Under the pieces are notes generated by a model. The model made no database searches. It worked only from the letters and a program-made list of their open reading frames with translations, and was not told where the DNA came from. A stretch of 64,000 nucleotides of DNA from Chloroflexota bacterium (lineage in GTDB: Bacteria > Chloroflexota > Anaerolineae > Anaerolineales > Villigracilaceae): NCBI GenBank assembly GCA_016191845.1, contig JACPVF010000015.1:343258-407257 (forward strand), read 5' to 3'. This document shows positions 8,890 to 31,714 of this stretch, piece by piece; the stretch's first letter is position 1, and each line of letters opens with the position of its first letter. Both the position numbers and the translations under genes were made by a program.

Positions 8890-10137
8890 CTATTTCTTCA
8901 ACTCTGCTGCATTGCGCTGGATCTTCTTGATGGCCGCCACGGCATCATCCACGCCTTGGGGGCCCGCACGGAAGATGGCCTCGTCCAGCCAGACGGCTTC
9001 GTGTTCACAGGCACGGGTGGCTTCGGGCAGGTGCATGTCCTTGAAGTTGAAATATTCGGGAAAGGCATTTGGCACGGCCAGCTTCGAGCGCTGCGGTTGG
9101 AACAGTTCATAGTTGTGCATGGCCTCGTAGCCGACCCAGCAATCCACGCCCTCGGCCTCGAGGGCATCACATAGCGCGTCATGTTCCAGACCGAATTCCT
9201 GCGGGTCGATGGCAAAGATGTAGCGGTAGAACGAGCGCGTGGTATGACGTTCATCGCGTTTCAGGACGCGCACGCCCTTGACCTCGCTCAGCGACTCATC
9301 CATGTAGGCGGCCATTTCTTCGCGTTGCCTGGCCTGTTCGGGAAAGCGCTCGACACCAATCAGCGCCAACGCAGCCTGCAACTCGCTCAAGCGGAAGTTT
9401 CCGCCTTGCATCGACAGACCGTTCGGGTCTTCGGGGCCGCCGCCCAGGGCGTGCGGACGTCCGCAGTCGATGATGGAGGCGGCCAGGGCGGCGTGTTCCG
9501 CCGAACGGCAGAGCAGGATCCCGCCCTCGCCCGAGGTCAACGTCTTGGAGGATTGCAGGCTGAACGATCCGAAGTGGCCGAGGGTGCCTGCACCGCGTCC
9601 ACGCCATTTGGCGCCGTGGGCATGGGCGCAGTCTTCGATCACGATCAGGTTGTACTTTTCGGCCAGTGCGAGGATGGCATCCATATCGGCCATTTGGTGC
9701 CCGAGATGCACGGGAATGATGGCTTTCGTCTTGGCGGTGATGGCTTTTTCGGCGGCCTTTGGGTCGAGACAATAGGTATTTGGGTCCACATCCACGATGA
9801 TGGGGATGGCGCCTGCACCCATCGGCGCGGAGGCGGTGGCCTGGAAGGTGTAGGCAGGTACGATGACCTCGTCACCCCAGCCGATGCCTGCGGCGCGCAG
9901 GGCCACTTCCATGGTGATGGTACCGTTGGTCATCGGCACGGCGTAACCGCCACCTTGCATCTCGGCGAACTTCTTCGCCAACTCGGCGGTCTTCGGCCCA
10001 GGATAGGGGAAGCCGCCCCAGCGCCCCGAGCGGACCACGTCCATCACGGCTTGCAGATCGCGCTCGTCCCACACGGGCCAGTGCGGATACGGTTCGGTGC
10101 GGGCTTTCGGTCCGCCTAAGATCGCGAGTTCGGACAT
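8890..10137 (-). CDS. DegT/DnrJ/EryC1/StrS-family PLP-dependent aminotransferase
   Basis: 415 aa: ...VPAYTFQATASAP..., IIPVHLGHQMADMD, EDCAHAHGA, SFSLQSSKTLTSGEGG (the PLP-lysine motif of the family). RBS AAGGAGAA lies before the ATG. Confidence 0.88.
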   Translation of the reverse strand: MSELAILGGPKARTEPYPHWPVWDERDLQAVMDVVRSGRWGGFPYPGPKTAELAKKFAEMQGGGYAVPMTNGTITMEVALRAAGIGWGDEVIVPAYTFQATASAPMGAGAIPIIVDVDPNTYCLDPKAAEKAITAKTKAIIPVHLGHQMADMDAILALAEKYNLIVIEDCAHAHGAKWRGRGAGTLGHFGSFSLQSSKTLTSGEGGILLCRSAEHAALAASIIDCGRPHALGGGPEDPNGLSMQGGNFRLSELQAALALIGVERFPEQARQREEMAAYMDESLSEVKGVRVLKRDERHTTRSFYRYIFAIDPQEFGLEHDALCDALEAEGVDCWVGYEAMHNYELFQPQRSKLAVPNAFPEYFNFKDMHLPEATRACEHEAVWLDEAIFRAGPQGVDDAVAAIKKIQRNAAELKK

Positions 10138-10225
10138 GGTTGGTTCTCCTTGTGGGTTGGTTTACTACAGAGGGACGAAAGACGCTTTGTAAACTTTGTG
10201 TCCTCTGCGTCTCTGCGGTAAATGA

Positions 10226-11416
10226 TCATTTCAATAATGCGGACAGTCCATCCATTACGGCGGGTGCGATGCCTTTTCCGATGGAGTTGGTCTCTTCATA
10301 ATGTTTGCCAGGCTTGAATGGGTTGAGCGGATACTCGAAATCTTCGACAGGCAGGATGTAGCCCAGCTCATCGTTAGCCAGCCCGATCACACCTGCGACC
10401 TGCGCGCCTGCGGCCTTCATCTGCGCCTTAAGCTGCATTCCCAGCTTGGGCAGCAGCTCACCAGGGACAGCCGCCAGCCACAACCCGCCGATCTTGACCA
10501 GGTTGACTTCGCTCTCGATCTCGCCCCGCTGATTCCGCGCATCGGGCAGGGTCTTGAAGAGGAAGGCCAGCTTGTACAGTGGATTGGTCATCCTGGCCTG
10601 GATGTCTTTCTTCTGAAGGCTGATTTCTTTCACCTGTGTGGATTGCACCTGGCCCAATGCCTTCACCCCTTCCTTAGCTAGTTTCTTTCCCATGAGCTCG
10701 GCCTCCGCGAAGGAGTGGTCCTTTACGTGGGGGGTCATCATGCCGCCCAGGTCACCCGCAAAGAAGATGCACGGTGCGCCCGTCTGATGCTGGACCTCGT
10801 CGCGCAGATAGCCGACATAGTCGGCGGTGATGTGCGGGTTGTGCTCCCACAGCACTTCGGGATGACAGGGGAAGTTGAACAGGCTGACGAAGGGCGAATC
10901 ATCCCGACCGATGAATTGTGCCAGGGTCAATTCATCGTCCAGAATTTCGGGATTGCGATTGTTCTTCGCCAGGCCAGGGACGTGGACGGAGGTCATTTTG
11001 ACGGTGGCCGGCTGGAGGTCCGCGAGGGAGGCGAGGATGGCGGCGACGATCTTATCTTTGAGGCCGCGCATGTAGTCCTCATCCACGCCACGGGTACGCA
11101 TATCAGGACCCCAGATGCCCATGGTATCGGGGCCGTGGTGCGGATGGACCGAGGCGATCAGCACTTCGGGCTTCAAGACCCTAAAGGTCTCCGAGGCTTT
11201 TAGGATCTCGATCACTTCATACACATCGTGACGGAAGAAGCCGATCAGGTCGAGCGCGGTGAGGACGAGAGTAGTGCCTTCGGTCTGGAGCGCGAGCGCG
11301 CGCACGTATAAATCGTCATGAATCGTTTCGGCGCGGCGGTTCTGGCCGAAGCCTGCCAGAAAGACAGTTTTATCCAAACTGGGTGTGATGACCGCTTGCG
11401 CATATCCAACTTTCAT
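10226..11416 (-). CDS. Neutral/alkaline ceramidase N-terminal-domain-like hydrolase (function unknown), copy 1
   Basis: MKVGYAQAVITPSLDKTVFLAGFGQNRRAETIHDDLYVRALAL..ASVHPHHGPD matches the start pattern of the ceramidase-fold family (G..ITP...GYG.R....IHD.L..RAL, then an H.H.GP metal motif). It is paralogous to 13752-15059. Confidence 0.65.
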   Translation of the reverse strand: MKVGYAQAVITPSLDKTVFLAGFGQNRRAETIHDDLYVRALALQTEGTTLVLTALDLIGFFRHDVYEVIEILKASETFRVLKPEVLIASVHPHHGPDTMGIWGPDMRTRGVDEDYMRGLKDKIVAAILASLADLQPATVKMTSVHVPGLAKNNRNPEILDDELTLAQFIGRDDSPFVSLFNFPCHPEVLWEHNPHITADYVGYLRDEVQHQTGAPCIFFAGDLGGMMTPHVKDHSFAEAELMGKKLAKEGVKALGQVQSTQVKEISLQKKDIQARMTNPLYKLAFLFKTLPDARNQRGEIESEVNLVKIGGLWLAAVPGELLPKLGMQLKAQMKAAGAQVAGVIGLANDELGYILPVEDFEYPLNPFKPGKHYEETNSIGKGIAPAVMDGLSALLK

Positions 11417-12384
11417 TTGACCAACTCCTTTGCAGTGCGGACCATCTCGTCGCGGACGGCGTAGCCGTCGAAGCCAGCCTGTTCCATGCCGAGGAGGACT
11501 GCGCCAACCACGGGCGGGCCGTCGAGGCGGATGAGCTTTGCTTTCGGCAGGTGTTGCATGACGATGGCGCGCATCGGCTCGGTGATGGCTTCGCCCGCCT
11601 CGAAGACACTGCCCGATTGGATGACCTCCAGCTCGTCATTTTCCATGCCGATCTGGCGCGCCACCGAGACGGCCAGCCAGCCGAGTTCCTCGCCTGCCCA
11701 GTGGATGATTTCCTGTGCGGCGGCGTCGCCCTGTTGCGCAGCTTCGATGATCTTCACCGCGATGAACGGGAAGAGATGATACTGCGAGTTCGAGAGACCT
11801 TCCATCAGGTCGGCTTCGTCTTTCGCGCCCGTGGCTTCGAGCAGGACCGCCGTTAGCGCGGTGGGGGGGATACGGCGGATCCATGCGTAATTGACCATCT
11901 GTAGTGCGCGCAGCGTGATCTCCATCGCGCCGCCGTATTCGCCGAACATCGGCCCGTTGCCGACGATGCGGCCTTCCACGCCCTGCGCGTTGCGCCCACG
12001 GCAATTGTTGGATGAACCCGCCGTGACGTTGACCCCCACCCCACGCGTGGCGCCCGCCAGCAGGCCGTTCATGCCATCGTTGACGATCTCCAGCGGACAG
12101 GTCAGCCCGAGCGCGGCGATGGCTTGCATGTGTTGTTCACGGTCGGACGGGAAGTCATACCCCGCTACGCCGAAGCCTGCTCCCACGATATCGGCCGCAT
12201 CCACGCCTGACATTTCGCAGGCCCCGCCGAACGACTCGCGCAACACATTCTCCAGCCCGTCATAGCCCACGCCCTGATGATTCCCACCCCAGGCCTTGCC
12301 AAAGCCGACACAGCATCCGCTTTCATCGGCGATGATGGCATGTGTCTTGGAAGAACCAACGTCGATTCCCAAAAAATATTTCAT
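11413..12384 (-). CDS. BadF/BadG/BcrA/BcrD-type ATPase (N-acetylglucosamine-kinase-like sugar kinase)
   Basis: It has MKYFLGIDVGSSKTHAIIADESG (the ASKHA phosphate-1 motif) and GVAGYD and TAGSSNN segments. There is a 4-nt overlap with the downstream gene. Confidence 0.8.
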   Translation of the reverse strand: MKYFLGIDVGSSKTHAIIADESGCCVGFGKAWGGNHQGVGYDGLENVLRESFGGACEMSGVDAADIVGAGFGVAGYDFPSDREQHMQAIAALGLTCPLEIVNDGMNGLLAGATRGVGVNVTAGSSNNCRGRNAQGVEGRIVGNGPMFGEYGGAMEITLRALQMVNYAWIRRIPPTALTAVLLEATGAKDEADLMEGLSNSQYHLFPFIAVKIIEAAQQGDAAAQEIIHWAGEELGWLAVSVARQIGMENDELEVIQSGSVFEAGEAITEPMRAIVMQHLPKAKLIRLDGPPVVGAVLLGMEQAGFDGYAVRDEMVRTAKELVK

Positions 12385-12403
12385 GAGTTATGCCTGAAAA
12401 GAT

Positions 12404-13750
12404 TTATTCACCTGCAGTGGCGTGTTTCCTGACCAGCGCATCCTTGATGCTTTGCAGGTATGGACCGTGAATCGGGTATAGCCACAGCAGGAAGATGGCC
12501 AGCAAAAAGCCGATTGACGTGGGCGCCGTCAGGAAGATGCGGAAGCCCATGTCCACCGAGGCAGGCTGGACATCGAGCAGGGTATCGTAGCCGAAGGCGG
12601 GCATGATCAGCCCGAAGACCGAAGAGACCAGCAATCCGCTCAGGGTGATGACGAAGCCGCTCATCCCGAAGAACATGCCCGCGCGTTGATGCCCTGTCTT
12701 GACCTCATCCTCGTCGATGACTTCGGCTATGATCACGTCGCCGATCAGGATCAGTCCGCCCAGGCCGATGCCGATGATGACAGCCGTCACCAGCGTGAAG
12801 GGCAGCGACGGGCTGAATCCCAGTGGGACGACGCCGAAGATCATGATCAGGTTGGCCAGCATGAGCGTGCGGCGCGAGTCGAGTTTGTTGGCCACCCAGT
12901 TGCGCCACGGATACAGAGATAGCATGGCTACCGCGAAGGCGATGCCGAAGATCACGCTGAACATGCTGTCGCTGACCTTGAGGCTGTACTTCAAATAGAA
13001 GGGCATGCCCATTTGCAGCGTGCCTGTGGCCACGAAGCGCATGGCCTGCGCGCCTGTGGCAGTCAGATAACTGCGGTTGACGAATGTGGATTTGAGTGCC
13101 TGCCAGAACGGGAAACTGGTATCGGTTTTTAGGTCCGCGCGCTCGAACAATGACGAGTAGCCGATGTACAGCGGCACCACCGAGATGACCGCCAGCGAAA
13201 TGGCCATACCCGCCCATCCGATGGAGTTCCACAACAGCGGCGGCACCACCGAGGCCAGGATCAGCGCGATGACCTGAAAGATGTTCATGCGCGCCGCCAC
13301 ATCGGTACGTTCTTCGTAGGTGCCGAACATCTCGGGCAGCAGTCCGTAATAGCCCGTGGCCAATGCCGTGTACAGACCTTCCCAAATGACGATGAAGATG
13401 CCGAAGTAGATCAGCAGCCCGATGGGATTGGTCTTCCCGTCGAAGGGCGTGGTGAAGATCAGGGCGAAGGTCAATGCATAGGGCAGGCCGCCGAACAGGA
13501 TGTACGGTCGGCGACGGCCCCAGCGGGAGCGCGTTCGGTCGGAGGCATATCCCAGCGCGGGGTTGTTTAGCGCGTTGTAAACGGTGTAGAAGAACCAGAA
13601 GCTCGCGAACCAGGTGGCAGGCAGGTTCTTCACATCCACGATGTAATACAGGGCAAAGGCCGAGATGGTCTCGACGGGTGTAGCCACTCCCAGACTCATC
13701 AGGGAGTACATCATGCGGGTCTTGGTGTTGGTGGCGCCTTCGGGGGTCAT
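12404..13750 (-). CDS. MFS/GPH-family glycoside:cation symporter (MelB-like), copy 1
   Basis: 448 aa, about 12 TM, with the SDRTRSRWGRRRPYILFG loop motif (D-R-x-x-x-x-G-R-R-R-P) typical of GPH transporters. Confidence 0.85.
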   Translation of the reverse strand: MTPEGATNTKTRMMYSLMSLGVATPVETISAFALYYIVDVKNLPATWFASFWFFYTVYNALNNPALGYASDRTRSRWGRRRPYILFGGLPYALTFALIFTTPFDGKTNPIGLLIYFGIFIVIWEGLYTALATGYYGLLPEMFGTYEERTDVAARMNIFQVIALILASVVPPLLWNSIGWAGMAISLAVISVVPLYIGYSSLFERADLKTDTSFPFWQALKSTFVNRSYLTATGAQAMRFVATGTLQMGMPFYLKYSLKVSDSMFSVIFGIAFAVAMLSLYPWRNWVANKLDSRRTLMLANLIMIFGVVPLGFSPSLPFTLVTAVIIGIGLGGLILIGDVIIAEVIDEDEVKTGHQRAGMFFGMSGFVITLSGLLVSSVFGLIMPAFGYDTLLDVQPASVDMGFRIFLTAPTSIGFLLAIFLLWLYPIHGPYLQSIKDALVRKHATAGE

Positions 13751-13751
13751 C

Positions 13752-15059
13752 TCAACTCCACAGCTTCTTTAACATGTCCTGAGTGGTATCCAGCGCGATC
13801 TGTTCGCACTGGGCCTGAAAGCGACCAGGATAGCGATAGGCCAGCGGAGCCACGTCCACTTCGTAGCCGCCCTCAGCGTGTGACTCGGCGGTATGCAGAT
13901 AGCTGATGCTGCCGTCGCTGATGCTGGCGAACAGCGTGTGTTTGGCAGGCGAGGCCGCCTTGAGCTTCATGCCGATCTCGGTGAAGGTCTCGGCGCCAAA
14001 AGTGACCAACGCCAGGTCGCCGATCTTCACAGCGCTGACCCGCATCGGCACGGACCAATATCCATTCCTGGCCTCGATGACGGGCTTCCACGGATAGCGT
14101 TGATCGAGCAGCATGTCGGCGAAGACTGCCATGAAGCCAGGCAGATGCGCCATGGCCAACAACGGCGCGGTGTAATTCTTGGGTGGACGAGGCGTGCTGG
14201 CCTGCGTCTCGGTCGGCATCCAAGCTTGCGTGCGCTCCACATGGATGGGAGTGCTGTTCATCGCCTCGGACCCGCTGCGGACCGCCGTCAAAACGGAGTC
14301 GGCCACACTCAGGCCCTGTTCCGTCACCTTCTCGAAGACCTGCGAGTCGCCCCAGTACATGTCGGGGTTGATGTTGGCGGTGGCTCCCTGCAGGAAGAGT
14401 GCCAGCCCGCCCAGTTCGGATTCCACCTTCTGGCGCATCACACCGATCCAGTCGGCGGAGACCAGCAGATTATCGGGTCCGAGCACGGTGCCATGGCAGG
14501 CATAGTTAACCACTGTCGCCAATCGACCTGTTTCAGCCATCACACTCAATACCTGCACCGACTTGTCGCGCGGACCATCGGGGTTGCGTCCGATCTCCAT
14601 GCGGCCATCGGGCAGGCGTTCGCGGCGGTTGATGCCCACTGAGCCCTCGCCCAGGGAATATTCCAGGCGAGCGGGCTGGAGATGGGATTGCGCGCGCTGC
14701 ACGGCATCCACGATGCGTTCGACCAGCAGGTCGATGTAGGTGCGGTTCAGCCGCGAGGATTTTTCGTCCGCGTAGGCGATGGGGCCCGAGTGCGTGTGCG
14801 AGCAGCACAGCAGCACCTCGGTCCCTGCCAGGCGCGCGCGGACGCGGTCCACGATGAACTCGTTGATGGTCAGCATGTCCAGCGCCACCACGGCCAGACG
14901 GGTCGAGCCGTCATCGAGAACCAGGGCGGTGGCGGTCAGCTCATCGTGCACGCCGACGTTGCCCTTGGTGCGGTCGCCATAACCGATGAGGTAAATGCCC
15001 TTTGGCGGGGTGATGAGGTTGCGCACCACGCCAGCGCGCAGACTGGTATCAGTCATCAT
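13752..15059 (-). CDS. Neutral/alkaline ceramidase N-terminal-domain-like hydrolase (function unknown), copy 2
   Basis: It has LRAGVVRNLITPPKGIYLIGYGDRTKGNVGVHDELTATALVLDD and CCSHTHSGP (the H-x-H-x-GP metal motif). Confidence 0.7.
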   Translation of the reverse strand: MMTDTSLRAGVVRNLITPPKGIYLIGYGDRTKGNVGVHDELTATALVLDDGSTRLAVVALDMLTINEFIVDRVRARLAGTEVLLCCSHTHSGPIAYADEKSSRLNRTYIDLLVERIVDAVQRAQSHLQPARLEYSLGEGSVGINRRERLPDGRMEIGRNPDGPRDKSVQVLSVMAETGRLATVVNYACHGTVLGPDNLLVSADWIGVMRQKVESELGGLALFLQGATANINPDMYWGDSQVFEKVTEQGLSVADSVLTAVRSGSEAMNSTPIHVERTQAWMPTETQASTPRPPKNYTAPLLAMAHLPGFMAVFADMLLDQRYPWKPVIEARNGYWSVPMRVSAVKIGDLALVTFGAETFTEIGMKLKAASPAKHTLFASISDGSISYLHTAESHAEGGYEVDVAPLAYRYPGRFQAQCEQIALDTTQDMLKKLWS

Positions 15060-16392
15060 CGACGACCTCGAGCGGCAGGTTCAGGTTCTGGCGCGTCTCT
15101 TCAGGCGTGTCTCCCACGCGATACTTCTGGAAGAGGAAATATCCCGCAAAGGTGAACAGGGCCATCACAGGGAAGGCCAGTTGCACGCCGAGCGGATTGG
15201 CCTGGGTGAAGCCGAAATTCTCCAGAAGCAGGGGCAGGATCAGGGTCCCGACCGCGGTACCCAGTCCAATGGCGAAGGAAAACGTCCCGTAGTAAATGGC
15301 CTCGCGGCGGCGTTTGGTCAGCATCTCGTCATAGTCGACCATGTTGCCCATCATGGCATAGATCAGGATCAGGTAGCCGCCCAGCGATGCGCCGATCAGG
15401 GCAATCAACGTGTAGACCTGTACCAGCAGCGGGATGCCAGGCAGCCTGCCGACGAAGAAGCCGAATGCAAAGGCCACGCCCAGCAGGATCAGGCTGATGT
15501 TGAGCAGGGTCTTCTGGCTGTGCTTGCGGCTGAACTGTGTCCAGGCGATGCCCGTCAGCGCCATGAAGATGATCAGCACACCCTGATAGATACCCACTTC
15601 CCCTTCGGTCCCATGAACAACCAAAGTGATGAAATAGGGGAAGTTGGCCAACACCATCTGATAAGCGATGTGCACGCACAGGGTGGAAAAGAACAGGATC
15701 AGGAACTGTTGGTTCTGGAAGGTGGCTTTCAATCCCTCCATGGCTTTCATCGGCTCGCCCACGGGACGGTTGGTTTCTTCCAACCCGAACAGGGTGCCGT
15801 AAATGGTCATCACGCCCACCCAGCCGACGATGCCGCCCATGGCCACAGCGCCCACGCTCTCGAAGAGCGGAGCCGCCACCAGGGAGCCGATCAACACCCC
15901 CAGAATGCCGAAGACATTCTTCCAGAAGCTCAAGCCCACGCGGGCATGAGTCTCGGGGGCCATCTCGGGCAGGGTGGCGTCGTACGGAATCCCGACCAGG
16001 CTGAAGCTGGTGTGGTAGATCAGGATGATGACCATGAAGTACAGGCCATTCAGTCCGATGTTGTCCTTGGTGGGCGGCAGCCACAGCAGCACGGCGCCCA
16101 ACAGCACGAACGGTGCCGCGATCGCCATGAACGGTTTGCGGCGTCCCCAGCGTGAGCGCAGGGTGTCGCTCCAATGACCGATGAACGGGTCGATGGCTGC
16201 GTCCCAGATGCTGGCGATGAGCAACAGCACGCCCATCATGGCGGCGGGGATGTAGGTGGGGCGGCCCGAGTCGGGCGGGGGCGCGTAGAAATATAGAAGC
16301 CAGGTGCTGATGGTGATGCCGAGGATGTTCAGTCCCGCTGATGCGCTGGAGTACAGGGCAATGCGCGAAAACGGTAGTTTGTTCTTTTCCAT
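15049..16392 (-). CDS. MFS/GPH-family glycoside:cation symporter, copy 2
   Basis: The ATG at 16392 gives MEKNKLPFSRIALYSSASAGLNILG. The loop SDTLRSRWGRRKPFMAIA is the GPH signature. The longer ORF-track start at 16470 adds an unlikely non-membrane leader. Confidence 0.85.
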   Translation of the reverse strand: MEKNKLPFSRIALYSSASAGLNILGITISTWLLYFYAPPPDSGRPTYIPAAMMGVLLLIASIWDAAIDPFIGHWSDTLRSRWGRRKPFMAIAAPFVLLGAVLLWLPPTKDNIGLNGLYFMVIILIYHTSFSLVGIPYDATLPEMAPETHARVGLSFWKNVFGILGVLIGSLVAAPLFESVGAVAMGGIVGWVGVMTIYGTLFGLEETNRPVGEPMKAMEGLKATFQNQQFLILFFSTLCVHIAYQMVLANFPYFITLVVHGTEGEVGIYQGVLIIFMALTGIAWTQFSRKHSQKTLLNISLILLGVAFAFGFFVGRLPGIPLLVQVYTLIALIGASLGGYLILIYAMMGNMVDYDEMLTKRRREAIYYGTFSFAIGLGTAVGTLILPLLLENFGFTQANPLGVQLAFPVMALFTFAGYFLFQKYRVGDTPEETRQNLNLPLEVVDDD

Positions 16393-16450
16393 GTTCAGCT
16401 CCGTTCGAGGGTGATTCCCCCATGTGCGGGGTGTGTTGTGTCTGGGTGAA

Positions 16451-17344
16451 TTATACGTTGCGCATGGCATCGCGGATAGCGCGATAGCCCACCAGTTTGA
16501 TATCTTCCTTTTCGAGATGCTTCTTGAACTCGTCGCTCAGGAAGACCTTGTAATTCTCCACGCGGCATGGCCAGTCGGGTGTGATGGCGCGCAGCTCGGG
16601 CGTATCCACTGAGGGGTGCAGCAGGAAGTGCGTGATGCCAGGCTTCAACTCGCTGACCATGCGTTTGGCCACGTTCAACTGGTCGCGCGGGTCATCGAGG
16701 GGCAGGCCCGTGGCAAAGTCCTGCATGGGCACGCCTTGCGATTCGAGGTAATCGGTCATGGCCTTGACCATTTCGAAGGTGTCCTCGTCCACGCCAAAGG
16801 TGGCGTACGTCTCACGGTCGCCGTGTGGGATGAGCGGCGGCAGCTTGTACTTGCTGATCAACTGGATGTAGCCCGCGATGAACTTGGGATGCGCCACCGC
16901 GCCCATGTGCATGTCGGCATGCGTGAGGTCGAGGCCGAAGGCCAGCGCGCGCTGGATCTGCGCTTCGAGCTCGACCAGCGCCTCGTCGGGATCGCCCTTC
17001 TCCTGGACCTCAGCATCGGTGCGGGGAAAATAGCCTTCACTGTCCACCAGAGTGGATTCCGTTAACCGCCCCGTGATCGGACGCCAGCGATAGAACTGCC
17101 ACTCGCTGGTGAGGACGAGGTGCACGCCCAGGTCCGCGCTGGGGATGTGGCGCTGAAGGTCCGCTGCGGCAGGGAACCACGGACACGGCACCATCACCGC
17201 GCCCGAGGTCAGCGTGCCGAAATTGAACAGGTTTTCATAAGCCTGGATGGTGGCGTGACACATGCCCACGTCATCGGCGTGGGTGACCACGACGCGGTCA
17301 TTGGCGGAGAAGCCGAGTTTGGCGAGGAAGGGATTGGGAGTCAT
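16451..17344 (-). CDS. YdjC/ChbG-family carbohydrate deacetylase
   Basis: It has VVVTHADDVGMCHATIQA, GVHLVLTSEW and THADMHMG, the metal/acid-base motifs of YdjC-like proteins. The start is taken at MTPNPFLAKLG (17344). The ORF-track extension to 17416 reads into the intergenic repeat. Confidence 0.82.
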   Translation of the reverse strand: MTPNPFLAKLGFSANDRVVVTHADDVGMCHATIQAYENLFNFGTLTSGAVMVPCPWFPAAADLQRHIPSADLGVHLVLTSEWQFYRWRPITGRLTESTLVDSEGYFPRTDAEVQEKGDPDEALVELEAQIQRALAFGLDLTHADMHMGAVAHPKFIAGYIQLISKYKLPPLIPHGDRETYATFGVDEDTFEMVKAMTDYLESQGVPMQDFATGLPLDDPRDQLNVAKRMVSELKPGITHFLLHPSVDTPELRAITPDWPCRVENYKVFLSDEFKKHLEKEDIKLVGYRAIRDAMRNV

Positions 17345-17373
17345 GGCGAGTCCTTTGTAATGATATCTTCGTG

Positions 17374-17480: not shown

Positions 17481-17488
17481 ATGTTGTG

Positions 17489-21149: not shown

Positions 21150-24319
<3,170 letters not shown>

Positions 24320-24871
24320 CTAATTGACTCTCTTCGACATGTAGATATCGGGTTTTCCCCTGCCATTCGCATCGGGCACGACGCCCGTGATGACGAAGCC
24401 CATCTTCTGATAGAACTCGAAGGGATGGCCTTTCAGGTTGCGGATGTTTCGAATCTGTTCCCAAAGATTCTCGTACAAATCCACATTCGCCAGCGAGGTC
24501 ATGCCGTCTTCGTCATCCGAGCCGAGGGTGATGGTCAGGCCGCCGCGCTGGCGGACCTGTTCTTCAAAGTCCTCGACCAGCGCGCGGCCGATGCCCTGTT
24601 TCTGGAGGGTCGGTTGTACCGCCAGTGGATGTAATTCCCAGACGTGACCGTCATACTCGGGGATCCCGCCGATCACGCCCAGCAGAGTCCCATCCTCGCC
24701 CACGGCGGCGCGGCAGATGCGGTCGGCCGAGAGCATCTCGCGGACCTCGGTCAGGCCGTCCTCAAAGGTGGGCCAGGCGTCGGGCCAGTGCTCGCGGAAG
24801 GCGTCCACGATCAGTTGTGCGGCCTGTTGAATGAGGTGTTCGTCAGCGGGCGTGAGGGGGATGATCTTCAT
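24320..24871 (-). CDS. GNAT N-acetyltransferase closely resembling AAC(6')-Ii-type aminoglycoside 6'-N-acetyltransferases
   Basis: WELHPLAV...QKQGIGRALV...GGLTITLGSDDEDGMTSLANVDLYENLWEQIRNIRNLKGHPFEFYQKMGFVITGVVPDANGRGKPDIYMSKRV parallels, from my memory of AAC(6')-Ii, WELHPLVV...GGITIYLGTDD...[32 protein letters not shown]. Confidence 0.75.
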   Translation of the reverse strand: MKIIPLTPADEHLIQQAAQLIVDAFREHWPDAWPTFEDGLTEVREMLSADRICRAAVGEDGTLLGVIGGIPEYDGHVWELHPLAVQPTLQKQGIGRALVEDFEEQVRQRGGLTITLGSDDEDGMTSLANVDLYENLWEQIRNIRNLKGHPFEFYQKMGFVITGVVPDANGRGKPDIYMSKRVN

Positions 24872-25764
24872 TTGGTTTTGTCTGCGTTCATGATGAGCGC
24901 GATGGAGCCCAGGACGCCTGCGCGGTTGCCCAGCGCGGGCGGGACGATGTACGAGTCGATGTCCTTCAGGATGGCAGGATGGTTGACGTAGCCCTTCAGC
25001 AGATCCTGAACTTTGGCCCTGATCTTGGGGAACATGAATTCGTTCTGCATCACGCCGCCGCCGATGATGATCTTCCTCGGTGTCAGCGTCAAAATGTAGT
25101 TGACCAGCGCGTAGGCGATATAGCCAGCTTCCACGTCCCAGAAGGGATGGTCGGCAGCCAGCGTCTCCGCGCGCTGACCGAAGCGTACCAGGATGGACGG
25201 CCCCGCCGCCAGGCCTTCGAAGCAGTCGCCGTGATAGGGACAGGCCCCATCGAAGGGATCGAGATCGCGGTCATGGGGTGGATAGATGTGTCCCATCTCG
25301 GGGCTGACCAGTCCGTGCATGGGTCTGCCGCCGATGATGAATCCCGCGCCGATGCCTGTCCCGACCGTGATGTAGAGTGATGGATCCAGACCTTTGCTGG
25401 CGCCCCAGCGGGCCTCGCCCAGCCCAGCCACAGCTACGTCCAGGTCAACGGCAAAGGGCAGGTTCAGACTCTTGCGCAGGGTGCCGAGCACGTCGGTGTT
25501 GCCCCAGTGCGGCTTGGGCGTGGTGGTGATGAATCCAAACGTGGGCGACTCAGGGTCGACGTCAAACGGGCCGAAGGAGCCGAGGCCGATTCCGTGCAAG
25601 CGGTCGACGTGCGGGGCGAAGAAATCCACCACCTGCTGGAGTGTTTCCTCGGGTGTGGTGGTGGGGAAGCGGACCTCGTCCACGACCTGCTCGGGGCTGC
25701 TGGCGATCATGCAGACGAACTTGGTGCCGCCTGCTTCGATGCCGCCGTACAGTTTCTCTGTCAT
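24868..25764 (-). CDS. ROK-family fructokinase/mannokinase (Mak/GmuE-like)
   Basis: It has YGGIEAGGTKFVC, ITVGTGIGAGFI and the zinc motif GHIYPPH...CPYHGDCFEGL. Confidence 0.85.
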   Translation of the reverse strand: MTEKLYGGIEAGGTKFVCMIASSPEQVVDEVRFPTTTPEETLQQVVDFFAPHVDRLHGIGLGSFGPFDVDPESPTFGFITTTPKPHWGNTDVLGTLRKSLNLPFAVDLDVAVAGLGEARWGASKGLDPSLYITVGTGIGAGFIIGGRPMHGLVSPEMGHIYPPHDRDLDPFDGACPYHGDCFEGLAAGPSILVRFGQRAETLAADHPFWDVEAGYIAYALVNYILTLTPRKIIIGGGVMQNEFMFPKIRAKVQDLLKGYVNHPAILKDIDSYIVPPALGNRAGVLGSIALIMNADKTK

Positions 25765-25776: not shown

Positions 25777-27099
25777 TTATTCCTCAACTTGATTCTTGCG
25801 GATGACCTCGGCATACCACTTGCCCGAATCCTTGACCGTGCGCTGGAGGGTGTCGTAATCCACGCGGATCAGGCCAAAGCGTTTGGTGAAGCCGTGACTC
25901 CACTCGAAGTTGTCGAGCAGTGACCAGACGAAGTATCCGCGCAGGTCCACACCGTCCTGCATGGCGAGGCGCGCCTGGATGAAATGCTGTTTGAGATAGT
26001 CGAGGCGGCGCGGGTCGTGGACCTGTCCGTCGGCGCTGACCTCATCTGCAAAGGCGGCGCCGTTCTCGGTGATATAGAGCGGCGGCAGGTCGTATTCACG
26101 GCTGATCTGTACCAGCAGGCGGCGCATGGCAGGCGCATGGACCTCCCAGCCCATTTCGGTGTATTCCGCGCCCGGAACGCGTTCGACACGTCCACCGGCG
26201 TTGACCAGGTGACGCGAATAATAATTAATGCCGAGAAAATCCAGCTTTTGCGAGATCAACGCCAGATCGCCATCGTGGATGGCAGGCATGTCATCGCCCA
26301 CTGTGTTGTAGACAGAGAGGGGATAGTGACCCTTGAAGATCGGGTCGAGGAAGAGGGTTTCCTGCTGATCCCAGGTGGACTGAGCGGCGACGGCGTCTTC
26401 GGGCGAGTGGGTCTCAGGCTCGGCAGGCCACAGGTTCAGCACGATGCCGACCTTGGCGCTCGGATCTGCCCCGCGGATGGCCTGTGTCGCCAGTCCATGC
26501 GCCAGCATAAGATGATGCGCCACCTGGTAGGCAGCCTTCTGATTCTGGATGCCGGGCGCATGTCCGCCCCAGTGATTGCCTGCGAACGCCACCACGCCGG
26601 GTTCGTTGAAGGTGGTCCAGTTCTTCACGCGGTCGCCGAAGCGCTTGACCATCAGTGCGGCGTAATCGGCAAATGCGTAGCTCAGATTGCGGTTGGTCCA
26701 GCCACCCTCGTCCTGGAATGTCTGCGGCAGGTCCCAATGATAGAGCGTCAGGAACGGCTCGATGTTGGCGGCGCACAGCGAATCGACCAGGCGGTCGTAG
26801 AAGTCGAGTCCCTGCGGGTTGATGCGGCCCCGTCCATGCGGGAGCACGCGCGGCCACGAGACCGAGAAGCGATAAGCCTTGAGGCCAAGCTGGCGCATGA
26901 GCGCGATATCCTCCTCGTAGCGGTGGTAATGATCGCAGGCCACGTCGCCCGTATCGCCGTTGGTGATCTTGCCTGGCGTGTGGCTGAAACGGTCCCAGAT
27001 CGACTCGCCCTTGCCGTCCGCATCCCATCCGCCTTCCACCTGATAGGCGGCTGTCGCCGCACCCCACAAGAATTTGGGGGGAAAAGAGTACGTGTTCAT
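25777..27099 (-). CDS. Glycoside hydrolase family 1 beta-glucosidase/beta-mannosidase-like
   Basis: It has FLWGAATAAYQVEGG, TFNEP (acid/base Glu) and YITENGAAF (nucleophile Glu). Confidence 0.93.
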   Translation of the reverse strand: MNTYSFPPKFLWGAATAAYQVEGGWDADGKGESIWDRFSHTPGKITNGDTGDVACDHYHRYEEDIALMRQLGLKAYRFSVSWPRVLPHGRGRINPQGLDFYDRLVDSLCAANIEPFLTLYHWDLPQTFQDEGGWTNRNLSYAFADYAALMVKRFGDRVKNWTTFNEPGVVAFAGNHWGGHAPGIQNQKAAYQVAHHLMLAHGLATQAIRGADPSAKVGIVLNLWPAEPETHSPEDAVAAQSTWDQQETLFLDPIFKGHYPLSVYNTVGDDMPAIHDGDLALISQKLDFLGINYYSRHLVNAGGRVERVPGAEYTEMGWEVHAPAMRRLLVQISREYDLPPLYITENGAAFADEVSADGQVHDPRRLDYLKQHFIQARLAMQDGVDLRGYFVWSLLDNFEWSHGFTKRFGLIRVDYDTLQRTVKDSGKWYAEVIRKNQVEE

Positions 27100-27132
27100 C
27101 CTATGTGAAACCTCAATGATTGGATTGATCGC

Positions 27133-28260
27133 TCATTCCTTCGAGCCCGTCAACTTGATGCCCTGGATGAAGGTCTTCTGCGCAAAGAAGAAGGCTACCA
27201 CGATCGGGATCGTGAAGACGGTGGCCGCGGCCATGAGCTGATTCCACACAAGGGTACGCTGACTCTGGAAATCCTGCAAGCCAAGTGCCATGGTGAAATT
27301 CTTCGGGCTGGTGAGGAAGAGCAGTGGACCCGTGAAGTCGTTCCACGCCCACAGGAAAGTGAAGACCGTGACGGTGGCCAGTACAGGCACCGAAAGGGGA
27401 ATCACCAACTGGGTAAAGATCTGCCATTCCGAAGCGCCGTCCACGCGGGCGGCATCGCACATCTCTTCGGGGATGGTTCGGAAGAACTGTCGCAGCAGGA
27501 ATACATCGTAGGCGTTGGCGAAGAAGGCGGGTACGATAATGGGCAGGAAGGTGTCGCCCCAGTGCAGGAAGTTGTTGAAGAACAGGTACAGCGGGATCAT
27601 CGTGACCTGATACGGTAGCATCATGGTGGCCAGCACGATCACGAACAGAATGTCGCGGCCAGGGAATTTCAAGCGCGCAAAGGCGTAGGCCACCGGCGCG
27701 TTCGAAAGCAACGTACCGACGATGGTGAAGAAGGCGATGATCAGGCTGTTCTTGAAATACACCCAGAAGCTGGCGTCCACGCTTGGGCGGCTGGCACGGT
27801 TCATCGCATCAGGGAAGTTCTGCCAGCGGAAGCTGACGTGCATTACAGGCGTGGCGATCTTGGTCTCGCCCTGCTGGATCTCATATTCCACGACCCGATC
27901 AGGATGCTGCGGGTCGACGAAGGTCCCCACCCCCTCGACGATCTTGACCGCCGCCAGTTGTTTTTCGCCCTGAGGGGTGATCACGTTATATAAAGGCAAT
28001 TCCTGCCCGTTGACCTCCACGCGGACGTTGTCGTACGGCAGCCAGCGCGGCGGCGTGTGGAACACGTCCTCGTTGGATTTGAAGGCCGTGATGAGCATCC
28101 ACAGGAACGGCACCAGGAAGAAAAGTCCAAAGAAGCTGATGAGCGCATGACTGAATAACGATTTGAAGAAATTACGCACGTTTTTCCTGCGCGCGCGCTG
28201 ACGGGACTCTTCGGTCTGCGTGAGGCGCGGGTCGGGGTATTGAGCGGGGATCGTGGTCAT
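27133..28260 (-). CDS. Carbohydrate ABC transporter permease (MalG-like, with an extended periplasmic loop)
   Basis: 375 aa. The EAA-like loop is DAARVDGASEWQIFTQLVIPL. An insertion of about 100 aa lies between TM1 and TM2. Confidence 0.88.
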   Translation of the reverse strand: MTTIPAQYPDPRLTQTEESRQRARRKNVRNFFKSLFSHALISFFGLFFLVPFLWMLITAFKSNEDVFHTPPRWLPYDNVRVEVNGQELPLYNVITPQGEKQLAAVKIVEGVGTFVDPQHPDRVVEYEIQQGETKIATPVMHVSFRWQNFPDAMNRASRPSVDASFWVYFKNSLIIAFFTIVGTLLSNAPVAYAFARLKFPGRDILFVIVLATMMLPYQVTMIPLYLFFNNFLHWGDTFLPIIVPAFFANAYDVFLLRQFFRTIPEEMCDAARVDGASEWQIFTQLVIPLSVPVLATVTVFTFLWAWNDFTGPLLFLTSPKNFTMALGLQDFQSQRTLVWNQLMAAATVFTIPIVVAFFFAQKTFIQGIKLTGSKE

Positions 28261-28263
28261 GGT

Positions 28264-29250
28264 TTACCCCGCGTAGTAGGTGAACTTGTCGCTGATTTTC
28301 AGCAGCAACAAGGTGCAGACCAGGATGATGATGAACAACACCCAGGCCATGGCCGAGGCATATCCCATCTTGAGCCATTGGAAGGCGTTCTGGTAGAGCA
28401 GCACGCTGTAGAACAAGGTCGAGTTCAGCGGATAGCCCAGGTTCTGGAATCCGCGGAAGACGTAAGCCTGCGCAAAATATTGGAACATGGCGATCACACC
28501 CGTGATGAGGTTGAAGAGCGTGATGGGTGAGACCATCGGCACGGTGACATGCCACAGGCGCTGCCACCAGTTGGCCCCGTCCAGTTCGGCGGCTTCCAGC
28601 AGACTGACCGACACATCCTGCAACCCCGAGAGATAGATGATGATGGTGTTTCCCATACCCCATAATCCCAGCATGATCAGCCCAGGCTTGGACCAGGCGG
28701 GGTTGCTCATCCAGTTCGGGCCGTGGATGCCGATGTAACCCAGCACGGTGTTGAGGATGCCCGCCTGCGGGTTGAGGATCCACAGCCACAGGATGGTGCT
28801 GGCCACGGTCGGTACGATGGACGGCAGGAAGTACACAACACGGTAGAAGGCTTGTCCACGCACCTTGAGGTTGAGCAGGATGGCGCAAAAAAAGGAGGCT
28901 AATAAAGTCAGCGGGACGCCGATCACCACCATGTAGAGCGTGTTGTAAAGGGCGGTCCAGAATAAATCATCTTGGAAAAGATCGATGTAGTTCTTCAATC
29001 CCACCCATTCGAGCGGCTGACGCGCATGATAGACGGCAAAGCTGTACACCAGCGAGGCCAGCATCGGGTACAGGGTAAAAACCAGGAAGCCGATCGTCCA
29101 CGGCAGCAGGAACAACATGCCGATCTTGAAGTTGTCGCGTTCGCGTCGGCTCCATTTCCTGAATCTGGGCGGCCAAATTTTTTGATCCGTCATGCGCAGT
29201 TCATCCATCGCTTCCTCTTTTCGTCTTACGGTAGGGGCACGGCGGGTCAT
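28264..29250 (-). CDS. Carbohydrate ABC transporter permease (MalF-like)
   Basis: It has LEAAELDGANWWQRLWHVTVP (EAA loop) and 6 TM. The alternative start MDELRM at 29208 has a better SD (GAGGAAG). Confidence 0.88.
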   Translation of the reverse strand: MTRRAPTVRRKEEAMDELRMTDQKIWPPRFRKWSRRERDNFKIGMLFLLPWTIGFLVFTLYPMLASLVYSFAVYHARQPLEWVGLKNYIDLFQDDLFWTALYNTLYMVVIGVPLTLLASFFCAILLNLKVRGQAFYRVVYFLPSIVPTVASTILWLWILNPQAGILNTVLGYIGIHGPNWMSNPAWSKPGLIMLGLWGMGNTIIIYLSGLQDVSVSLLEAAELDGANWWQRLWHVTVPMVSPITLFNLITGVIAMFQYFAQAYVFRGFQNLGYPLNSTLFYSVLLYQNAFQWLKMGYASAMAWVLFIIILVCTLLLLKISDKFTYYAG

Positions 29251-29294
29251 TCCAGTTCTATTGAATGACCGTTCTGCCGTGCCCCAACAAAATA

Positions 29295-30593
29295 TTACTT
29301 GAGCGACTCAGCCAGCTTCGGCTCGAAATCAGCTTGCAGTTTTTCGAGCAGCGGCTGCGGGTCGGCGCCCGTGTGCAACACCTGCTCTTCGAGCAAAGTC
29401 CAGGCGTCGTTGAACTCCAGCGAGATGGGCGTGGTGACCACGACCTTGGCATTCGGGTTGGCCATCAGGTCCATGAAGACCTTGAACTTGGGATTGCTGG
29501 TGAAGCATGGATCTTCAGCGGCCTTCTTGCTGGTGGGCAGGTTGGCGTTGAAGCAGAACTCCTCGGCCACGATGGCAGGCGACATCATCCACGCCAGCAG
29601 CTTGGCGGACGCTTCCTTGTCTGCTGCGCCGCTGGGAATGACCGCCACCGTGCCAGAGGCAACGCCCGTGTTGGCGCGCTCGGGATGGTCCGCGGGCGGC
29701 GGGAAGGCGGCCACGCCGTAGCTGGCCTCGGGCTTGAACTTGCTGATGAAGTTCGGGCCCGTCATCCATTCGCCGTCCACATACATGGCCAGCTTGCCCG
29801 TGTAGAACGGATAATCGCCAGACATGTAGGCGTCGGCCCAGCCCGACGAGAAGGCCATCACATTGTCCACGCCGTATTTGGTGTAGAACTGCTGCTCCCA
29901 TTTCAGCGCGTCGATGACGGGCTGCGTGTTGGCGGTGATCTTCGTGCCGTCCTCGTTGTACCAGAAGCCGCCGAACATGTTGGTGTACAGCTCGCTGTGA
30001 CCCCAGCCCTGATCGGGCAGGAAGCCGATCTGTTCGAGCGTGCCGTCAGGGTTGACCTTGGTCAGCTTGTCGGAGAATTCGGCCAGTTGCTCCATCGTGG
30101 CGGGCGGGGTGTTGGGGTCGAGACCAGCCGCTTCGAAGAGGTCCTTGTTCCAGAACAGGGCGTACATGTCCGAACCCCAGGGCAGGCATAGGATCTTGTC
30201 GCCCATCTTGCACTGCTGCAGGGGCGCATCGAAGAAATCGGTCAGGTCAATGCTGCCGCTTTTGATCGCAGGACTCAGCTCATCGACCAGGCCTTCCTTG
30301 TAGTACGATTTGACCAGGTCGCCGCCGCTCAGCACGAGGATGTCGGGCGGCTCGGAACCTGTCAGCGCGGGCAGGATCTTGTCCACTTCGAGCGGGGCGG
30401 TCACTTCGACCTTGATGCCCGTTTCAGCGGTGTACTTGTCGAACAGGGTCTGGATCTGCTGGGGGTTGTCGCCCCACTGGATCCACACCCGCAGGACCTT
30501 CGGTTCTGAGCTGGCAGGCGCCTGCGTGCCACAGGCCGAGAGCAGCAAGCTTGCGATCATCAGGATGCTCAACAGCGAGAAAAGTTTTTTCAT
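29295..30593 (-). CDS. Extracellular solute-binding lipoprotein of the sugar ABC transporter (family 1)
   Basis: It has MKKLFSLLSILMIASLLLSACG (lipobox) and the length and composition of a family-1 SBP. Confidence 0.88.
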   Translation of the reverse strand: MKKLFSLLSILMIASLLLSACGTQAPASSEPKVLRVWIQWGDNPQQIQTLFDKYTAETGIKVEVTAPLEVDKILPALTGSEPPDILVLSGGDLVKSYYKEGLVDELSPAIKSGSIDLTDFFDAPLQQCKMGDKILCLPWGSDMYALFWNKDLFEAAGLDPNTPPATMEQLAEFSDKLTKVNPDGTLEQIGFLPDQGWGHSELYTNMFGGFWYNEDGTKITANTQPVIDALKWEQQFYTKYGVDNVMAFSSGWADAYMSGDYPFYTGKLAMYVDGEWMTGPNFISKFKPEASYGVAAFPPPADHPERANTGVASGTVAVIPSGAADKEASAKLLAWMMSPAIVAEEFCFNANLPTSKKAAEDPCFTSNPKFKVFMDLMANPNAKVVVTTPISLEFNDAWTLLEEQVLHTGADPQPLLEKLQADFEPKLAESLK

Positions 30594-30667
30594 CTTCCGT
30601 CACTCCTTTTGATATGGTTGGGAAACATCAGCCTTGAGGCAGGGACAATGAGGCGGCGAACCTCCTT

Positions 30668-31681
30668 TCACTTGCAACCGCAGGAATTGCGGACGATCAC
30701 CTCGGTGGGGAGCAGGGTCAACGCTTCAGCCTGCTCGCCGCGAATCAGACGAACCAGTTGCCTGACCGCTTCGCGCCCGACCTGTTCGATGGGCGCGCGG
30801 ACGGTCGTCAGCGCGGGGGCGAGGAACGGGGCGAAGGGCACGTCGTCGAAACCGACCACAGCCACATCGTCGGGGATGCGGCGGCCCGCTGCCTGGAGCG
30901 CAGTAAACACCCCCAGCGCGGATTCATCATCCCCGCTGAAGACGGCATCGAAATCCACGCCGCGAGCTATCATCTCCCCGACGGCTGCCTCGGCGGTCTG
31001 ACGGTCGAACGCGCCCACGCGGATCAGCTCTTCGTCAACGGGCAGACCGTTGGCTTCGAGCGCCTCGCAATAGCCGCGCTCGCGCCAGAGTGAGTCCTCG
31101 TGGCGCTCGGGTCCGCGCAGATAAACGATGCGGCGCCGTCCATGCACTTTGATCAGATGATCGACAATGCGGAAGGCGCCGTCCTTGTTTTCGATGGTGA
31201 TGGTGGGAATCTCGTAGCCCGCGACCGATTGATGCATCAGCACCAACGGCAGGCCGAGCATGTGCAGCCGTTCGATCTCGTCCGCTTCGAGGCTGTCAGT
31301 GAAGATGAGCAGGCCGTCGGTGTTGTGTTCGCCGAGCGGCGGATGCGCGCGTGACGCGCTGGAAGGCTCGCCCGTGACGTGAATGAGCAGGTCGAAACCT
31401 GCCTCGCGGGCGGCGGCTTCGATGCCGCGCAGCATGGGCGAAAAGAACGCGTCGCTGATCTCGGGCAGCAGTAGGCCGATGGTGTTGGTCCGTCGGCTGG
31501 CCAGGACGCGCGCCGCCGTGCGGGGCACATACTTCAGCGCGCGGATGGCTTCCTGCACGCGTTCGGCGGTCTCGCCCACGACGGGCGTGCTGCCATTCAG
31601 CACGCGGCTGACCGTGGCGATCGAAACACCCGCCTGGCGGGCGACATCGGCAATCGTAGGGGGACGGTTAGGGGTATTCAT
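30668..31681 (-). CDS. LacI-family transcriptional regulator
   Basis: It has PTIADVARQAGVSIATVSRVLNG (HTH) followed by a periplasmic-binding-fold sugar sensor domain. Confidence 0.93.
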   Translation of the reverse strand: MNTPNRPPTIADVARQAGVSIATVSRVLNGSTPVVGETAERVQEAIRALKYVPRTAARVLASRRTNTIGLLLPEISDAFFSPMLRGIEAAAREAGFDLLIHVTGEPSSASRAHPPLGEHNTDGLLIFTDSLEADEIERLHMLGLPLVLMHQSVAGYEIPTITIENKDGAFRIVDHLIKVHGRRRIVYLRGPERHEDSLWRERGYCEALEANGLPVDEELIRVGAFDRQTAEAAVGEMIARGVDFDAVFSGDDESALGVFTALQAAGRRIPDDVAVVGFDDVPFAPFLAPALTTVRAPIEQVGREAVRQLVRLIRGEQAEALTLLPTEVIVRNSCGCK

Positions 31682-31714
31682 GATGTAAGCGCTTTCTGAA
31701 AGCGCTTACATCAT
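31680..31714. promoter_or_regulatory. 35-bp perfect palindrome containing two LacI/CcpA-type operator-like half-palindromes, abutting the LacI start codon
   Basis: ATGATGTAAGCGCTTTC-T-GAAAGCGCTTACATCAT has 17-bp perfect arms. Each arm is one mismatch from the self-complementary GTAAGCGCTTAC core known from LacI-family/cre operators. Confidence 0.6.

Follow-up and report, generated by a model that had tools for sequence, protein, structure and literature searches.

A LacI-headed glycoside locus of Anaerolineales with a GH4–kinase core and predicted amine-handling modules

Organisation of the array

An array of 19 open reading frames (ORFs), all on the minus strand, is found in the genome of a member of the Anaerolineales (Chloroflexota; 4.63 Mb, 99% complete). 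It occupies positions 8890–31681 of a 64,000-nucleotide (nt) stretch of this genome, here called the window, and each of its ORFs could be assigned to a family using Pfam and NCBIfam. The products include a LacI-family repressor, three importers, three glycosidases and two sugar kinases, together with several enzymes that may act on amines; among them, a glycoside hydrolase of family 4 (GH4) and a BadF-type kinase form a pair that is conserved in related bacteria. An original prediction, made from the DNA sequence alone, had described 19 co-directional genes at these coordinates, and the ORF list agrees. Three of the 19 genes were left out of its gene list: those for two ceramidase-fold amidases and a ProX/YbaK-like protein.

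The genes are closely packed. From the ORF coordinates, the 4-nt ATGA overlaps that had been noted at 11413, 18775, 20643, 21146 and 24868 are present, as is an 11-nt overlap at 15049–15059, and the genes for a family 38 glycosidase (GH38) and a GNAT acetyltransferase abut with no gap at 24319/24320. Remaining gaps are mostly 1–44 nt, with 74 nt between the genes for LacI and the solute-binding protein (SBP). The two larger spacers of the original prediction were found as well. That between the GH4 and YdjC genes (17345–17488, minus strand) carries a REP-like dispersed repeat, CTGAGCGG..GTCGAAG, a motif of which the genome has 11 copies where 0.24 would be expected; one 39-nt copy lies on contig C15. 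The second spacer (10138–10225, minus strand), between the genes for the amidase CerB and a DegT aminotransferase, contains a stable hairpin with no T-run (fold z = -3.3). No RNA family was matched in an Rfam search of 8000–32500. When same-strand runs were ranked over the whole 4.63-Mb genome using a simple codon-usage gene caller and gaps of at most 150 nt, the array came second in length among about 1,300 runs.

Among promoter-like sites on the operon strand, the best and the sole strong one is a sigma70-like TTGACT-17-TATAAT sequence on the minus strand at 31713–31741 (11 of 12 positions matched). It is directly followed by a 35-bp palindrome (31680–31714) that ends at the start codon of LacI. 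Two overlapping operators of the LacI/CcpA type (31684–31710) lie in this palindrome, after the -10 box and ahead of the start codon; no further LacI-type operators were found inside the locus. The only other promoter-like site on this strand is a single 9/12 match at 25092–25064, and none matching at 9/12 or better was found in the distal 12 kb of the array. Weak internal hairpins occur on the operon strand at 28922, 28357, 26245, 24037 and 15160; promoter- and terminator-like sites inside the array are together no more frequent than in shuffled sequence. At the other end, 53 nt past the DegT stop codon, a hairpin with a 16-bp stem, followed by T6, is predicted to serve as an intrinsic terminator in both directions (8800–8837). 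Since a promoter and operator are predicted at the head, a terminator at the tail, and internal signals do not exceed chance, the array is probably one LacI-controlled operon.

Other genes adjoin both ends. The terminator at 8800–8837 is common to the array and to a convergent gene (6816–8801) for a 661-amino acid (aa) protein with a long N-terminal region and a C-terminal Hanks-type Ser/Thr kinase domain (residues 401–651). Directly upstream of the array is a small gene (31780–32325) of atypical codon usage, which was dropped by the codon-usage caller; its terminator (31725–31758) overlaps the -35 box of the operon.

The first gene of the operon encodes the LacI-family repressor (30668–31681; Pfam LacI and Peripla_BP_3). 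It is followed by an ATP-binding cassette (ABC) importer of the CUT1 type, which comprises the SBP (29295–30593; SBP_bac_1) and two permeases (28264–29250 and 27133–28260; both BPD_transp_1). The top solved relative of the SBP is 4R9F, named ‘MBP1’ (156 bits), which we take to be the manno-oligosaccharide-binding protein of Caldanaerobius polysaccharolyticus; Lin1841 and CbpB come next. These similarities suggest a beta-linked oligosaccharide as the ligand.

The conserved GH4–kinase core

Related loci were collected as orthologues of the GH4 gene with 74–95% identity. The 80 loci obtained come almost entirely from metagenome-assembled genomes of Anaerolineales/Chloroflexota, including Candidatus Villigracilis; all counts from these relatives refer to related genomes and not to independent samples. 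The 19 window proteins were mapped onto the loci by tblastn, and co-occurrence was counted in those 44 loci for which 8 kb or more was available on either side. The counts are based on tblastn because the codon-usage caller misses genes in relatives of lower GC content.

The BadF kinase gene follows GH4 in 38 of the 44 loci, and the two remain adjacent even in the smallest loci, which consist of this pair alone. A minimal operon recurs among the relatives (for example L005, L008, L012 and L059), with the order LacI, SBP, permease, permease, (ProX-like), Gfo, GH4, BadF, DegT. The window retains this order and adds to it: GH1, ROK, GNAT and GH38 genes are inserted after the permeases, a phosphoesterase gene before GH4, a YdjC–GPH_A–CerA–GPH_B block after GH4, and CerB before DegT. 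Other relatives carry other inserts, namely a PIG-L deacetylase, an SDR epimerase, GH4 paralogues, an Fe-ADH_2-like protein, a CDF transporter and GH5. Several of the genes travel in company. GPH_A and CerA are always found together (7/7 loci), CerB is always accompanied by GPH_B (10/10), and GNAT is present solely alongside GH38 (5/5); among 22 loci that hold either Gfo or DegT, 20 hold both. Neighbourhood conservation had been put forward as a check on the original prediction: the order of the core is indeed kept among relatives, but the remaining genes are optional modules.

About 20 related loci have an operator resembling TGTAAGCGCTTACA at a distance of 12–42 nt upstream of LacI, and among LacI-bearing operons it is confined to that position. 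There are exceptions. In locus L004, where no LacI was detected, the TGTAAGCGCTTACA-like site lies upstream of GH1, and in L072 and L074 a variant operator site is found that has no link to any operon gene.

The anchor gene of this locus family encodes the GH4 glycosidase (17489–18778), which sequence comparisons place in the 6-phospho-beta-glucosidase clade. It scores 336 bits against the 6-phospho-beta-glucosidase 1S6Y and 270 against Thermotoga maritima BglT, compared with 156 for 6-phospho-alpha-glucosidases and 82 for AglA. Its identity to E. coli ChbF is 38% along the full length (E = 2e-100), and the blocks GGGSxYTPEL, VCN, GLNH and RGGAYYS are common to it and the comparison GH4 enzymes. 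The likeness to ChbF-type enzymes assumed in the original prediction is supported. BglT and GlvA need 6-phospho substrates (PMC10628242), and a similar need for phosphate is predicted for the window enzyme.

In organisms such as E. coli the phosphate is supplied by a phosphotransferase system (PTS). As had been claimed, no PTS component is encoded in the locus, judged by the Pfam and NCBIfam matches of its 19 proteins, and a search of the whole genome, 99% complete, for enzyme IIC (EIIC; PF02378) gave no match. Nor is the GH4 gene tied to EIIC elsewhere: in a 121-genome sample of the order, 30 genomes have a GH4 orthologue and 27 have EIIC, and EIIC occurs in 7 of the 30 GH4-positive and 20 of the 91 GH4-negative genomes, so that the two are independent. 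In the window genome (G000), which has no EIIC match, HPr and enzyme I N-terminal domains do adjoin on another contig (C18:93274–93923), with the HPr domain within a 270-aa open frame; this pair might be what is left of a regulatory or dihydroxyacetone-type PTS.

The kinase that accompanies GH4 (11413–12384) belongs to the BadF/NagK type (Pfam BcrAD_BadFG), with MurK, the Sulfolobus tokodaii hexokinase and NAGK as its nearest solved relatives. Because GH4 belongs to a 6-phospho clade, EIIC is missing and a kinase gene is conserved beside it, the BadF kinase is the candidate source of phosphate: it would supply the 6-phosphate in place of a PTS and, by this reasoning, would act on a disaccharide. 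It had been proposed that an imported glycoside is phosphorylated by an intracellular kinase before cleavage by GH4/GH38. The pairing of GH4 with BadF supports this for GH4; the GH38 part fails, as described below. The proposed route of import also needs to be changed, since in relatives the importer of the GH4 core is the ABC system and not a symporter.

The accessory modules

The block that follows GH4 begins with a carbohydrate deacetylase of the YdjC family (16451–17344; Pfam YdjC, 166 bits), the likely start of which is at 17344, although the longest ORF begins at 17416. It had been listed as YdjC/ChbG; the family holds, but the kinship to ChbG is distant (32% identity over just 68 aa; 55 bits against a cut-off of 227 for the chitin disaccharide deacetylase model). 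Next are two symporters of the GPH/MFS_2 family, GPH_A (15049–16470; Pfam MFS_2, 210 bits) and GPH_B (12404–13750; 204 bits), and between them lies the gene for CerA (13752–15059), a short protein of 435 aa that sequence and fold match to neutral ceramidase. A second such protein, CerB (10226–11416; 396 aa), is 26% identical to CerA and is encoded between BadF and DegT.

CerA and CerB have in common residues H38-D39, D61, H88, H90, H189, E357 and E396-G-Y399, among which H88, H90, H189, E357 and Y399 are invariant. In an alignment with Pseudomonas aeruginosa neutral ceramidase, these residues coincide with HTHSGP, His, Glu and Tyr of the Zn site. The AlphaFold model is of moderate quality (pLDDT 65.6, pTM 0.77), and with it Foldseek matches neutral ceramidases alone (E = 6.5e-21, TM = 0.64). 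Both proteins are thus predicted amidases with the fold of the ceramidase catalytic core. They resemble P. aeruginosa (2ZWS/2ZXC) and human (4WGK) neutral ceramidase in this core and in the HxH/His/Glu/Tyr positions of the Zn site. However, neutral ceramidases are secreted proteins of about 650 aa with a C-terminal domain, whereas neither CerA nor CerB has such a domain or, by inspection, a signal peptide, consistent with a cytoplasmic location, and both fall far below the cut-off of 1200 bits of the neutral ceramidase equivalog NF041649 (44 and 30 bits). They also stand apart in their gene partners, which are sugar symporters and, in other loci, DegT.

The short ceramidase-fold family is very large: at E ≤ 1e-10 it has 7,214 representatives, most of them 420–490 aa long. 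Its distribution in the phylum is patchy (39 of 301 sampled genomes), and some genera have at least five matches per genome; G194, G244, G252, G343 and G381, all of one genus, are of this kind. Among 29 distant loci, six, from five genera, have a DegT homologue directly adjoining the ceramidase-like gene on the same strand, and in two of the six the order is GPH–Cer–DegT.

DegT itself (8890–10137) is an aminotransferase dependent on pyridoxal phosphate (PLP). It scores 259 bits against both 5W71 and 2C7T and is nearest to the L-glutamine:2-deoxy-scyllo-inosose aminotransferases (BtrR/KanB type, 259 bits), followed by 3-amino-5-hydroxybenzoate (AHBA) synthase; NtdA reaches only 94 bits, a weak match. 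The aminotransferases of the first group and AHBA synthase work on free substrates rather than nucleotide-linked ones. The Gfo/Idh/MocA oxidoreductase (19651–20646; Pfam), for which NAD(P) is the cofactor, has DgpA, AFR, IolG-like proteins and UDP-GlcNAc 3-dehydrogenase among its relatives. Enzymes of these two families form biosynthetic pairs in NtdC/NtdA, in RifL/RifK and at the BtrS-type 2-deoxy-scyllo-inosose step. The window pair is like these in its two-enzyme chemistry (alcohol to ketone to amine) but is found inside a glycosidase operon controlled by a repressor and equipped with an importer, a setting in which it would probably run in the deaminating direction. Together, the pairing of Gfo with DegT and the presence of ceramidase-fold genes beside DegT suggest a branch that leads from amide to amine, ketone and alcohol.

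Two narrower possibilities were considered. NagA and NagB have no match above cut-offs in the genome, and the pair might have replaced NagB in the handling of glucosamine 6-phosphate (GlcN-6-P); this is weakened by three SIS-only, NagB-II/GlmD-like proteins encoded elsewhere in the genome, given which DegT and Gfo are not needed for glucosamine (GlcN). An aminocyclitol aglycone (inosamine) fed to the Iol pathway is unlikely, as the genome lacks IolD and IolE.

The insert that follows the permeases includes enzymes that may deal with neutral sugars. Its GH1 enzyme (25777–27099) is a beta-glucosidase of the non-phospho type: it matches TIGR03356 BGL at 616 bits (cut-off 478), while every 6-phospho model falls below its cut-off. 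The ROK sugar kinase (24868–25764; Pfam ROK) has no HTH domain and is fructo/mannokinase-like, with 296 bits against the ScrK model, under the cut-off of 400. The GNAT acetyltransferase (24320–24871) resembles AAC(6')-Ii (149 bits to 1N71) but does not reach the cut-offs of the NCBIfam models for AAC(6'), which are 300 and 265 bits (scores 173 and 169).

GH38 (21146–24319) is a protein of 1057 aa with four GH38 Pfam domains. It had been taken for an MngB-type enzyme, a view that we reject: the match to NF007331 (113 bits, cut-off 1138) is limited to the N-terminal domain. Instead, its similarity to Ams1 and further alpha-mannosidases of about 1060 aa extends along the entire protein, from the extended N-terminal region to the C-terminal domains, at 450–507 bits (6LZ1, 507; 7UFS, 452), with 60 bits to SpGH38. 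It is thus like the cytosolic class II alpha-mannosidases of the Ams1/Man2C1 type, from which it differs in its bacterial origin and in sharing an operon with a GNAT gene. The Ams1/Man2C1 group works on unphosphorylated oligomannosides, and GH38 would for this reason need no phosphate.

Two further genes lie between GH38 and GH4. The ProX/YbaK-like protein (20643–21149; Pfam tRNA_edit) has a deacylase domain and is nearest to ProXp-ala 5VXB and to 1VKI (88–92 bits). The YfcE-like metallophosphoesterase (18775–19647; Pfam Metallophos_2) scores above the cut-off of TIGR00040 and has no specific relative.

Beyond the array, the window holds some other features. Nine tandem 21-nt units at 44475–44689, each with a palindrome-like AAACC-ATCC-N-GGAT motif, lie about 45 nt downstream of the stop codon of a minus-strand arginine deiminase gene (44734–46056) and overlap the end of a plus-strand ORF (42594–44492). 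Two adjoining, paralogous minus-strand genes at 46852–48569 (288 and 293 aa, no Pfam match) show as direct repeats about 875 nt apart. At 52601–54076, within a MacB/HlyD-type exporter operon, is a gene whose product joins an ABC ATPase with a domain that binds cyclic nucleotides.

A predicted pathway and its alternatives

The arrangement described above is interpreted, with a confidence that only just inclines towards acceptance, as a single LacI-repressed unit in which a kinase-fed GH4 core is combined with an amine branch and the handling of neutral sugars. In this scheme the ABC system would import a beta-linked, amine-bearing glycoside, and the two GPH symporters would also import substrate in the window genome. 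The BadF-type kinase would phosphorylate the glycoside at O6, the job done by the PTS in the chb system of E. coli, and the NAD/Mn-dependent GH4 would then split the 6-phospho-glycoside. The YdjC deacetylase would take off N-acyl groups, as would CerA and CerB, acting as amidases in the cytoplasm, after which DegT would transaminate the freed amine to a ketone and the Gfo enzyme would reduce the ketone to a hydroxyl. GH38, GH1 and the ROK kinase may strip and phosphorylate neutral mannose and glucose decorations with no phospho-intermediate. The disaccharide specificity of the kinase, the order of the steps and the substrate are all predicted from the gene content; a mannose/N-acetylglucosamine (GlcNAc)-containing glycoside, as originally suggested, is possible. 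The operon would have grown by the insertion of accessory modules into a core conserved in the Anaerolineales, a proposal that forms one piece with the pathway and is put forward with the same slight inclination. The original prediction as a whole is partly supported.

Several observations weigh against this scheme. The nearest solved relatives of the BadF kinase bear the names of monosaccharide kinases (GlcNAc/N-acetylmuramic acid (MurNAc) kinase, hexokinase), and YdjC is only distantly related to ChbG. No proposed step accommodates the ProX-like protein, the phosphoesterase or the AAC(6')-like GNAT, and the three NagB-II/GlmD-like genes could themselves handle GlcN-6-P. The modules vary independently among relatives and may serve different substrates. 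Finally, in loci L022, L044 and L049 the GH4–BadF pair is flanked not by importers but by genes for an SDR epimerase, a GNAT, a WecA-like GT4 and a heparinase II/III-like protein; salvage of envelope amino sugars is possible, and would fit a GH4–kinase pair beside envelope-type genes as well as catabolism does.

The independent variation of the modules leads to a different explanation, in which the array is a mosaic of catabolic units that have a promoter in common but serve different substrates (beta-glucosides and alpha-mannosides, a chitobiose-like substrate for GH4, N-acyl amines and amino sugars) and form no common pathway. Modules do come and go independently in the 44–80 loci, down to GH4 and BadF alone, and the locus has three separate importers. 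However, the inserts lie within a core whose gene order and orientation are retained, the sole operator is at the head of the array, the six translational overlaps span the borders between modules, and the amidase, DegT and Gfo genes co-occur across them. A mosaic of this kind is therefore regarded as rather unlikely, though it deserves serious consideration. The names of the kinase's relatives bear on another possibility, namely that GH4 cleaves unphosphorylated glycosides and BadF phosphorylates the monosaccharide released (GlcNAc, GlcN or glucose), with no exchange of a kinase for a PTS. The GH4 family does include the non-phospho enzymes AglA and MelA, and the top NCBIfam match of the window enzyme is an alpha-galactosidase subfamily model, albeit below cut-off. 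Nevertheless, it scores 336 bits with the 6-phospho-beta enzyme against 82 with the non-phospho one, it shares 38% identity with ChbF, the characterised members of the 6-phospho clade need 6-phosphate (PMC10628242), and the adjacency of kinase and GH4 is maintained even in two-gene loci. We consider this possibility doubtful.

A role in synthesis, rather than breakdown, would be suggested by the relationship of DegT to BtrR/KanB-type enzymes and of GNAT to AAC(6')-Ii, and by the PIG-L and Fe-ADH_2-like genes of the relatives. The locus would then make or remodel an aminoglycoside-like aminocyclitol or amino sugar, with DegT as a counterpart of the 2-deoxy-scyllo-inosose (2-DOI) aminotransferase, Gfo of a dehydrogenase, GNAT of a self-resistance enzyme and the relatives' PIG-L of BtrD. 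This is very improbable. Among the Pfam and NCBIfam matches of the locus there is no glycosyltransferase or nucleotidyltransferase, nor does it have a sugar-phosphate cyclase, and the relatives' Fe-ADH_2-like protein gives no match to cyclases of the dehydroquinate (DHQ)-synthase type; the LacI repressor, the three importers and the three glycosidases likewise argue for catabolism.

The catabolic pathway may also be read in a more specific form, which we offer as speculation with little weight behind it. It would dismantle N-acylated, amine-bearing glycosides in the cytoplasm by a route not described before, with the short ceramidase-fold amidases acting as N-deacylases, DegT and Gfo reversing amino-sugar biosynthesis and BadF replacing the PTS, while the AAC(6')-like GNAT would reveal the native metabolic job of a resistance-type enzyme. 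Possible substrates in this case include aminoglycoside-like pseudo-oligosaccharides, glycans with 3- or 4-amino sugars, lipo-chitooligosaccharides and glycolipid head groups.

Relation to known systems and significance

The E. coli chbBCARFG operon resembles the window locus in combining a GH4 phospho-beta-glycosidase with a YdjC-family deacetylase in one sugar operon. It differs in having the PTS components EIIABC where the window locus has an ABC importer and GPH symporters, and an AraC-type regulator, ChbR, where the window locus has LacI. The BadF kinase is a further difference, and 11 further enzyme genes of the window have no chb counterpart. A closer parallel to the core is the csnR-K cluster for chitosan-oligomer uptake in Streptomyces and Kitasatospora, which encodes the ABC importer CsnEFG, the GH4 enzyme CsnH and a putative oligosaccharide kinase, CsnK (PMC5635096; bioRxiv 10.1101/2023.09.20.558697). 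As in the window, a repressor is combined there with a CUT1 ABC importer, a GH4 enzyme and a putative oligosaccharide kinase, and each of the two systems is predicted to work independently of a PTS. In csnR-K, however, the regulator is of the ROK type, and CsnK is called a ROK-family protein in one paper, whereas the window kinase is of the BadF type. Missing from the csn cluster are a DegT/Gfo pair, amidases, GH38, GH1, GPH symporters, a ProX-like gene and a GNAT, and its own enzymology is presumed. The statement that the locus matches no canonical operon was accordingly too strong for the core, as the combination of an ABC importer, GH4 and a kinase has been proposed for Streptomyces (PMC5635096).

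The chemistry of the core also has a precedent. BglK, a ROK beta-glucoside kinase, was used to make 6-phospho-glycosides for phospho-glycosidases (PMC10628242); as proposed here, an ATP-dependent kinase makes the 6-phospho-glycoside and a phospho-glycosidase, in this case a 6-phospho-beta-glucosidase, splits it. The window kinase differs from BglK in being of the BadF type, and the ROK protein of the window scores just 33 bits with the BglK model NF042998. Literature searches found no characterised pathway with GH4, DegT and Gfo and no equivalent of the whole locus, and returned nothing relevant on short bacterial ceramidase-like amidases or on the source of the BglT substrate in Thermotoga. 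The core is most likely a GH4 system that depends on a kinase and not on a PTS, as has been predicted before for Streptomyces, and unusual modules predicted to handle amines have been added to it.

If the kinase does feed GH4, this would explain how GH4 phospho-glycosidases can be used by bacteria that have no PTS. The amidase–aminotransferase–reductase branch, if true, would be a means of removing nitrogen from amino sugars with neither NagA nor NagB, and would provide a first functional context for the very large family of short ceramidase-fold proteins, as well as a context for AAC(6')-like and ProX-like proteins within sugar operons. Since Anaerolineales abound in activated sludge, sediments and groundwater, the pathway would bear on the turnover of necromass rich in amino sugars.

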